Origin: Escherichia coli
GTDB lineage: Bacteria > Pseudomonadota > Gammaproteobacteria > Enterobacterales > Enterobacteriaceae
Reading direction: 5' to 3' (one strand)
NCBI RefSeq assembly: GCF_003334785.1
Contig: NZ_QOWV01000007.1
DNA length: 64,000 bases
Positions within the stretch are counted from its first letter, which is position 1. Each line of letters starts with the position of its first letter. The position numbers and the translations under genes were made by a program. The notes beneath the pieces were generated by a model that was not told where the DNA came from, searched no databases, and worked only from the letters and a program-made list of their open reading frames with translations. Positions 58,447 through 60,024 of the stretch are shown here, piece by piece.

Positions 58447-58689
58447 AAAATCTCAAAAAAGAAGTAATTTCAGAATGAAATTAACTGTGATGATTATTAA
58501 TTCACTACAGAGGAATAAAAAATAATCTGAAGCATACTCTGAAACATCCTACTCTCTCACTCTAATAATGGCACCTTGCTCTTCTTATAAAGAAGGGAAT
58601 AATTAAGAATATTAAACTTTCATCAACTTCACATCAAGAAATTAAAAAATTTAAACATTAATCTAAATAATAACAACCTGATCACATAA

Positions 58690-60024
58690 TCGGGTACGAT
58701 TTTATCCGATAACTATAATGCTATAACTCTGGGAAATGGTTGGAATACACCGCTGGGTGCCATCTCTTTTTACGCTGCCCGATCGAGTAGTAAGTTAAAT
58801 AATGATACCAGACACGAAGGTACGAGCTATCAGGTCGCCTATAATAAATATCTAGTACAAACAGCCACTCGATTTAGCGTGGCCGCCTGGCGTTATGCTT
58901 CGCAGGATTACAGGACATTCAGCGACCATCTTTACGAAAATGATAAACACTATCATCAGAGTGATTATAATGATTTTTATGATATTGGCAGAAAAAATAG
59001 CCTTTCTGCCAATATTATGCAACCTTTATCCAATAATCTGGGAAATGTATCATTAAGTGCGCTTTGGCGGAATTACTGGGGGCGAAGTGGAAATGCTAAA
59101 GATTACCAATTCAGTTACTCCAATAACTGGCAACACATTAGTTATACTTTCTCTGCCAGCCAATCTTATGATGAAAATAATAAAGAAGAGGAGCGTTTTA
59201 ATCTGTTTATCTCCATTCCTTTCTACTGGGGGGATGATATTGCCAAAACACGTCACCAAATTAACTTATCGAATTCGACCTCATTTTCCAAAGATGGCTA
59301 TTCCTCCAACAATACTGGAATTACTGGCATAGCCGGTGAACATGATCAGTTAAATTATGGTATATATGTTAATCAGCAACAACAAAATAATGATACCTCG
59401 CTTGGTACGAATTTAAGCTGGAGAACTCCCATCGCCATAATAGATGGCAGCTATAGTCATTCTAAAAACGCCTGGCAAAGTGGTGGAAGTATTAGTAGTG
59501 GATTAGTTGTCTGGTCCGGTGGTATTAATATCACTAACCAGTTATCCGATACATTTGCAATTCTGGATGCGCCTGGATTAGAAGGCGCGCATATTAATGG
59601 ACAAAAATACAACCGAACAAACAGCAAAGGCCAGGTTGTTTACGACCCGATTATACCTCATCGTGAAAACCATCTGGTACTTGATATAGCAAACAGTGAA
59701 AGTGAAACAGAATTGCAGGGCAATCGTCAAATTATTGCGCCTTACCGTGGAGCAGTTTCTTATGTGCAGTTTACAACTGACCAACGTAAGCCTTGGTATA
59801 TACAGGCACTGCGTCCCGATGGTTCGCCATTAACCTTTGGCTATGACGTACTGGATCTCCAGGAAAACAATATTGGAGTCGTTGGCCAGGGTAGTCGCCT
59901 TTTTATTCGCGTAGATGAAATTCCAACTGGCATAAAAGTTGCTCTCAATGATGAACAGAATTTATTCTGTACTATTACTTTTCAACACGTTATTGATGAA
60001 AACAAAACATATATATGCCAGTAA
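58690..60024 (+). pseudogene. Fimbrial usher remnant (C-terminal ~445 codons, 5' part missing)
   Basis: Frame is open from 58690 (after TAA at 58687), ORF track calls 58879..60024; S/T/N/Y/G-rich beta-strand-like composition with C-terminal cysteine pair (CTITFQHVIDENKTYIC); sits directly upstream of an adhesin-like gene with a 12-bp spacer, as in chaperone-usher operons; no chaperone or major subunit gene upstream. Confidence 0.6.

Follow-up and report, generated by a model that had tools for sequence, protein, structure and literature searches.

The stretch of Escherichia coli DNA analysed here, 64,000 nt of contig NZ_QOWV01000007.1 (assembly GCF_003334785.1) and called the window below, carries between rpsT and nhaR the remains of a chaperone-usher fimbrial operon, of which the 3' half of the usher gene and the tip-adhesin-like gene that follows it are left (Table 1). 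The genes ileS, ribF, yaaY and rpsT flank this site at one end, nhaR and nhaA at the opposite end, and the rpsT-nhaR segment (~56700–61000) forms a 35% G+C island within a window of 52% G+C. When 56700–61050 was used as a megablast query against 5,426 complete E. coli genomes, the sample to which the genome counts below refer, the island was found in 4,227 of them. The same locus in the O157 strain 644-PT8 (L001) served as the intact-operon reference; its gene order is espX1, a fimbrial protein of 177 amino acids (aa), a 227-aa chaperone, an 816-aa usher and the tip gene.

Table 1. Features of the rpsT-nhaR island in the window
Feature	Position	Strand	Basis or remark
espX1, type III effector gene, pseudogene here	57026..58446	+	1-nt deletion in a T-run at ~57291
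Native intergenic/leader region, espX1 to fimbrial operon	58447..58692	+	Colinear with L001 3250–3506 and with all other alleles
Usher pseudogene remnant	58690..60024	+	Pfam and NCBIfam profile matches; junction at codon 374; pseudogene notes of the annotation pipeline
Deletion junction	58693..58695	.	GGT common to both parental flanks (3-bp microhomology); 2,445 bp missing
Intact tip-adhesin-like gene, 319 aa, last of the operon	60037..60996	+	Fold supported by AlphaFold/Foldseek; Z0021 match
A7 homopolymer in the tip gene	60328..60334	+	Frame shifted where the tract is A8 (O157 and three further sampled strains)

The original prediction for this region held that a frame opening at 58690, straight after a stop codon, runs for about 445 codons with usher-like composition. 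The frame has 444 sense codons and a stop, is preceded directly by TAA (58687–58689), and resembles ushers far beyond chance, as judged from the expect values (E) obtained with both Pfam and NCBIfam. The Pfam Usher domain (PF00577) matches at E = 3.5e-83, through model positions 201–549 of 549 only; PapC_C (PF13953) matches remnant residues 371–432 at E = 3.6e-09; and the NCBIfam usher profile NF011763 matches at E = 2.3e-234 over profile positions 375–826 of 826. The frame 58690–60024 is the C-terminal half of a fimbrial usher, and the opposite outcome, a lack of similarity to fimbrial ushers, is contradicted by these matches.

A complete usher of this type, for which some 850 aa had been assumed, proved to be shorter: the intact orthologue has 816 aa, with PapC_N at residues 24–159, Usher at 176–733 and PapC_C at 743–804, and its residues 42–805 align with FimD (E = 2.5e-113). 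The usher-derived residues of the remnant begin at 58693 and correspond to codons 374–816 of this protein (443 residues), and the remnant has no signal peptide and no PapC_N, and the barrel profile's first ~200 positions are missing from it. It scores 780 bits against NF011763 and so fails the curated whole-protein cut-off of 933 bits, the intact O157 usher scoring 1490. No start codon with a ribosome-binding site was found at its 5' end; the earliest in-frame start codon is a GTG at 58879, corresponding to a product of 381 aa. At least 1,000 contigs carry a record of this exact product, among them that of E. coli B REL606, where it is named “putative usher protein”. In every genome whose annotation was consulted, the Prokaryotic Genome Annotation Pipeline (PGAP) labels the remnant a pseudogene, “incomplete; missing N-terminus”, and the truncated usher is thus already known as an annotated pseudogene of a named fimbrial locus.

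The N-terminal 373 aa of the O157 usher, the chaperone and the major subunit were used as tblastn queries against all 64 kb of the window. The best match had E = 2.3, and usher residues 1–373 gave none better than E = 2.5, indicating that no other frame and no other part of the window contains what is missing; no complete usher lies upstream in a different frame. The cognate chaperone and major-subunit genes, both present in O157, are absent from the whole window.

Alignment with intact orthologous operons, which had been suggested as a check, gave a single clean gap and mapped the breakpoint to the trinucleotide GGT. By blastn, window positions 56000–58695 correspond to L001 809–3506 and positions 58693–61100 to L001 5949–8357, colinear on either side of the gap, with 95.9% identity in the left flank and 97.6% in the right. 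The left parental sequence reads ...CATAATCGGGT and continues beyond the breakpoint with TTGAAAA, the right parental sequence reads ...TTATGGCGGT and continues with ACGATTTT, and the window itself reads ...CATAATCGGGTACGATTTT. The interval first proposed for the breakpoint (58447–58690) came close at its right edge and missed the real junction by 3–5 nt, which lies beyond it in the first two codons of the frame. No filler, IS (insertion sequence) remnant or target duplication is found at the junction, which is identical to the base in all eight sampled deletion alleles.

The left end of the deletion lies ~45 bp 5' of the major-subunit ATG (L001 3551), and the right end is usher codon 374. The 2,445 bp lost comprise the last ~45 bp of the leader (with the first gene's ribosome-binding site), the genes for the major subunit and the chaperone, and usher codons 1–373. 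These codons encode the signal peptide and the N-terminal docking domain, along with the first ~200 barrel-profile positions. The original prediction of a deletion remnant stripped of the usher 5' half, the chaperone and the major pilin was accurate, since the gap relative to the intact O157 operon removes exactly these.

The DNA ahead of the frame had been described as 243 bp of AT-rich sequence with only a 16-codon open reading frame (ORF), and this description stands: 58447–58689 has 25.9% G+C, and its longest ORF is that at 58475–58525. The stretch is the unbroken native intergenic region and not a scar. A promoter and terminator scan of 58300–61100 returned as many sites as shuffled sequence and is uninformative on expression. 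Near 58616, the window and its close alleles L002–L004 lack one 8-bp unit (AAATTTTC) that is present as a near-tandem pair in every other allele, with or without the 2,445-bp deletion. The difference is a small deletion by slippage within a presumed regulatory region.

According to reviews (PMC10877973, PMC9387321), O-island 1 (OI-1) of O157:H7 (Z0020–Z0025) is putatively a fimbrial island, and “yeh-like” heads the list of fimbrial clusters in strain Sakai (PMC7098969). The published “Yeh-like” primers (PMC8249706) match L001 exactly at 5070–5089 and 5739–5757 and give the stated 688-bp product, which ties the name to the rpsT-nhaR locus. With up to three mismatches allowed, the window contains no site for these primers, because both sites fall in the deleted segment. 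The best model for the O157 major subunit is YehD, those for the chaperone are StcB and a related chaperone model, and that for the usher is NF011763; the major-subunit and chaperone scores are under the equivalog cut-offs. The remnant is a truncated, already annotated allele of the Yeh-like/OI-1 locus. It shares with the O157:H7 operon the site between rpsT/espX1 and nhaR, the upstream intergenic region and 97.4–97.6% nucleotide identity over the retained usher half and tip gene. In contrast to O157, where major subunit, chaperone and full-length 816-aa usher (with its Yeh-like primer sites) are all present, the window is without those 2,445 bp and both sites. The two flanking genes are in opposite states: in O157 the tip gene is frameshifted by A8 and espX1 is intact, whereas in the window the tip gene (A7) is intact and espX1 is frameshifted.

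Deletion alleles were counted with a 200-bp query spanning the junction, at least 80% of which had to be covered in one place. The junction is present in 2,427 of the 5,426 genomes (~45%), making the deletion allele the commonest state of the locus in this sample. The deleted segment, searched for with a 2,442-bp query, is present in 1,203 genomes, including O157:H7, O145, O78 strain 3 and VR50, and most of the remaining genomes have an IS1 replacement or no island. Eight deletion alleles and five intact alleles were then compared site by site. Positions 59178 and 59438 split all eight of the former from all five of the latter, and the order major subunit, chaperone, usher is also found in the divergent strain L013 (87–93% identity), which argues that the full operon is ancestral. 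The pattern of sequence differences points to one ancestral deletion of a complete operon.

The tip gene begins 12 bp past the stop codon of the remnant, the distance originally predicted, and is preceded by an AAGGAG ribosome-binding site. Its product has no match in Pfam, NCBIfam or the PDB sequences and no BLASTP similarity to the major subunit of the operon. Only 43 representative homologues were found among 1.84 billion proteins, and these share a pilin-type C-terminal motif ending ...VKVVV-Y-N/D. An AlphaFold model of the protein (predicted local distance difference test, pLDDT, 84.3) has FocH, FimH, CfaE, PapG, LpfD and CupB6 as its top Foldseek matches (E = 8e-10 to 5e-06), and the C-terminal half of the model matches FimG and FimA with target-normalised template-modelling (TM) scores of 0.6–0.7; a profile of the family matches FimA and the FimH pilin domain weakly (E = 1e-4 to 1e-2). 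Sequence searches being negative, it is the predicted fold and the weak profile match that support the label “adhesin-like”, in the sense of a putative two-domain tip adhesin. A signal peptide of the Sec type is present in the protein, and its C-terminal domain is of the pilin type, which needs a chaperone.

The equivalent of the A7 tract is A8 in 4 of the other 14 loci (L001, L007, L010 and L013). In O157 the frameshifted N-terminal ORF of 108 aa is exactly Z0021, and the window gene is orthologous to Z0021 (FmrA) and Z0020 together; Z0021 is named FmrA in reviews, where it is said to repress flagellar synthesis and motility (PMC10877973, PMC9387321). The tip gene of L007 differs from the otherwise identical L008 by the extra A alone, suggesting that the tract is either hypermutable or prone to long-read homopolymer errors. 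Among 16 sampled alleles with a truncated usher the tip gene is intact in 13 (the window, L002–L006, L008 and L012 by sequence; L017–L021 by annotation) and frameshifted in L007, L022 and L023.

In a 2026 paper (Sci Adv, PMC12778044), the residues W142 and S51 and an extensive alpha-helical flap are given for YhlD, a “Yeh-like (Yhl)” adhesin of Sakai (PDB 8V9V). That the tip protein is YhlD is doubtful, the quoted residues not fitting: the sole tryptophan of the tip protein is W3, in the signal peptide, which leaves W142 unmatched, and its model has short helices at 110–116 and 195–200 only, with no flap of the YhlD type. Searches of the PDB sequences with the protein and with its profile brought up no entry for YehD or YhlD. 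Either YhlD is a different protein or its entry is absent from the PDB copies searched. The “phylogroup E only” distribution given for YhlD was derived with a 0.90 k-mer threshold (PMC12778044), which would miss alleles that are ~2–3% divergent.

Taken together, we consider it very probable, at roughly 0.93, that the frame is a non-functional usher pseudogene of the Yeh-like operon that arose through one ancestral deletion of 2,445 bp. It joined a GGT in the operon leader, ~45 bp before the major-subunit start, and the GGT belonging to usher codon 374. RecA-independent illegitimate recombination or replication slippage at this 3-bp microhomology is the likeliest cause; a junction free of filler and IS remnants, with just 3 bp of homology, favours such an event over one mediated by an IS. 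The deletion took the major pilin gene, the chaperone gene and, from the usher, the signal peptide, the N-terminal domain at which chaperone-subunit complexes dock, and the barrel's first part. Lacking an export signal, and lacking a start codon and ribosome-binding site at the 5' end, the remnant should be unable to make an outer-membrane usher, and with the chaperone and major subunit gone the locus should be unable to build a pilus.

Two observations weigh against a pseudogene. The remnant frame is open in all eight sampled deletion alleles, despite differences of up to 41 nt, and its ratio of nonsynonymous to synonymous polymorphism (pN/pS) is 0.17 within the deletion alleles versus 0.14 within the intact ones, which on its face could suggest constraint. 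Stop-creating changes make up 4.7% of the possible substitutions in the remnant frame, and for the ~27 variants private to deletion alleles (our own count from the table of variable sites) ~1.3 stops are expected, so that an open frame with no stops is unsurprising. The same table reveals block-wise mosaic haplotypes in the usher half: the deletion alleles L006–L008 have 20–23 differences to intact O157-type alleles as against 27–41 to the group of the window, and the window remnant changes affinity along the gene. Much of the variation in the remnant was probably imported by recombination from intact operons. Since the haplotypes are mosaic and the alleles only 13, pN/pS was dropped as a test of relaxed selection. 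Within the window, 58771–59181 carries the haplotype of its own deletion-allele group only, with many amino-acid changes (such as D to Y at 58771), and 59397–59994 matches the other deletion-allele group, L006–L008.

A different account holds that the locus is still in use, the native promoter region transcribing the remnant as a long leader into the tip gene, the product of which would act as an FmrA-like motility repressor or be assembled by the paralogous Yeh chaperone and usher, with selection keeping the region tidy. It draws on the almost complete preservation of the upstream intergenic region, but there the promoter scan was no richer in sites than shuffled sequence. The ribosome-binding site of the tip gene and its intactness in most truncated-usher alleles also speak for use, as does its pN/pS of 0.21 in deletion alleles versus 0.12 in intact ones; recombination with intact alleles can, however, explain such low values. 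The exact correspondence of the O157 N-terminal fragment to the FmrA of the reviews (PMC10877973, PMC9387321) is a further hint of a function, yet the activity is reported for the truncated 108-aa O157 form and not for the full-length protein, which has the Sec-type signal peptide and chaperone-requiring domain described above. We regard continued use as unlikely, and the usher remnant would be non-coding even if it were true.

It is also conceivable, though quite unlikely in our judgement, that the deletion left an orphan tip-adhesin/FmrA-type gene driven by the native fimbrial promoter region, in which the A7/A8 tract (60328–60334) would switch between a full-length, exported adhesin and a 108-aa FmrA-like repressor. 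Were this so, the intact tip gene of most deletion alleles would reflect selection for a regulatory role or assembly by the paralogous Yeh machinery.

That the deletion is recurrent, or was made by an IS later lost, instead of being a single microhomology event, appears very improbable. Two sequence groups do exist among the deletion alleles, one of them nearer to the intact alleles; within 1,332 bp they differ by 27–41 nt, the first difference lying 78 bp away from the junction. All sampled junctions are nevertheless base-identical, two fixed differences are common to every deletion allele, and a 3-bp repeat is too weak to yield the same 2,445-bp deletion repeatedly. Although IS1 and IS5 are active at the locus in other strains, the junction holds no IS remnant, target duplication or filler, and an adjacent deletion mediated by an IS normally leaves the IS behind, as in K-12. 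An assembly or sequencing artefact of this record has practically no chance of explaining the truncation, given that the junction recurs in 2,427 independent complete genomes and the exact 381-aa product on the contigs counted above.

The K-12 allele is a degraded form of the same island at the same site, with a fragment of the tip gene left beside nhaR. There an IS1A, still in place, has taken the position of espX1, the usher remnant and the tip gene except for its last 138 nt; the window, by contrast, is free of IS and retains 4.3 kb of the island. The Yeh system of K-12 (YehD/C/B/A) and Salmonella Stc, gamma-4 chaperone-usher systems, have the same component types in the same order (major subunit, chaperone, usher, tip adhesin). 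They belong to a paralogous locus elsewhere on the chromosome; the O157 major subunit and chaperone score under the equivalog cut-offs, as noted, and the tip protein of the window locus matches no Pfam or NCBIfam family or PDB chain by sequence. E. coli is known to have disrupted chaperone-usher operons at conserved sites, and truncated structural genes were treated as disrupted by Wurpel et al. 2013 (PMC3559732). The rpsT-nhaR locus is another such case, differing in that a single defined deletion is here the commonest allele (45%) and not a strain-specific lesion.

The locus has also decayed independently by other routes, in examples drawn from L012, L013, L015 and L016. K-12-type strains have nearly all of the island replaced by IS1A, the usher remnant of strain 700462 is shorter (1,146 nt) and is abutted by an IS4-family element and further transposon genes, and the operon of strain 24A16CRGN010 has an IS1B insertion, frameshifts and a second, internal usher deletion.

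The remnant is a textbook case of fimbrial operon decay in E. coli and has little general biological weight. The present analysis contributes the exact junction and its microhomology, the frequencies of the alleles, evidence that a single origin was followed by recombination, and a connection of FmrA to a homopolymer frameshift in the tip gene. Markers in the usher 5' half, or the Yeh-like polymerase chain reaction (PMC8249706), would score ~45% of complete genomes as negative though the usher 3' half and tip gene remain. Surveys by tip gene or usher 3' half, conversely, over-count functional operons: by the present counts, two-thirds of the genomes with the usher 3' half are without the chaperone and major subunit. 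The exact junction can conveniently serve as a lineage marker, and the finding that O157 FmrA (Z0021) is the frameshift product of a tip-adhesin gene may interest those who work on that regulator.

Upstream of the fimbrial region, espX1 is split in the window into ORFs at 57026–57415 and 57325–58446; an intact 473-aa gene is present in O157 and others, and PGAP calls espX1 frameshifted in several other deletion-allele strains. Toward the right end of the window, an 80-aa ORF at 63661–63903 (+), ending MKQHKAMIVALIVICITAVVAALVTRKDLCEVHIRTGQTEVAVFTAYESE, resembles the mokC/hokC toxin locus beside nhaA.
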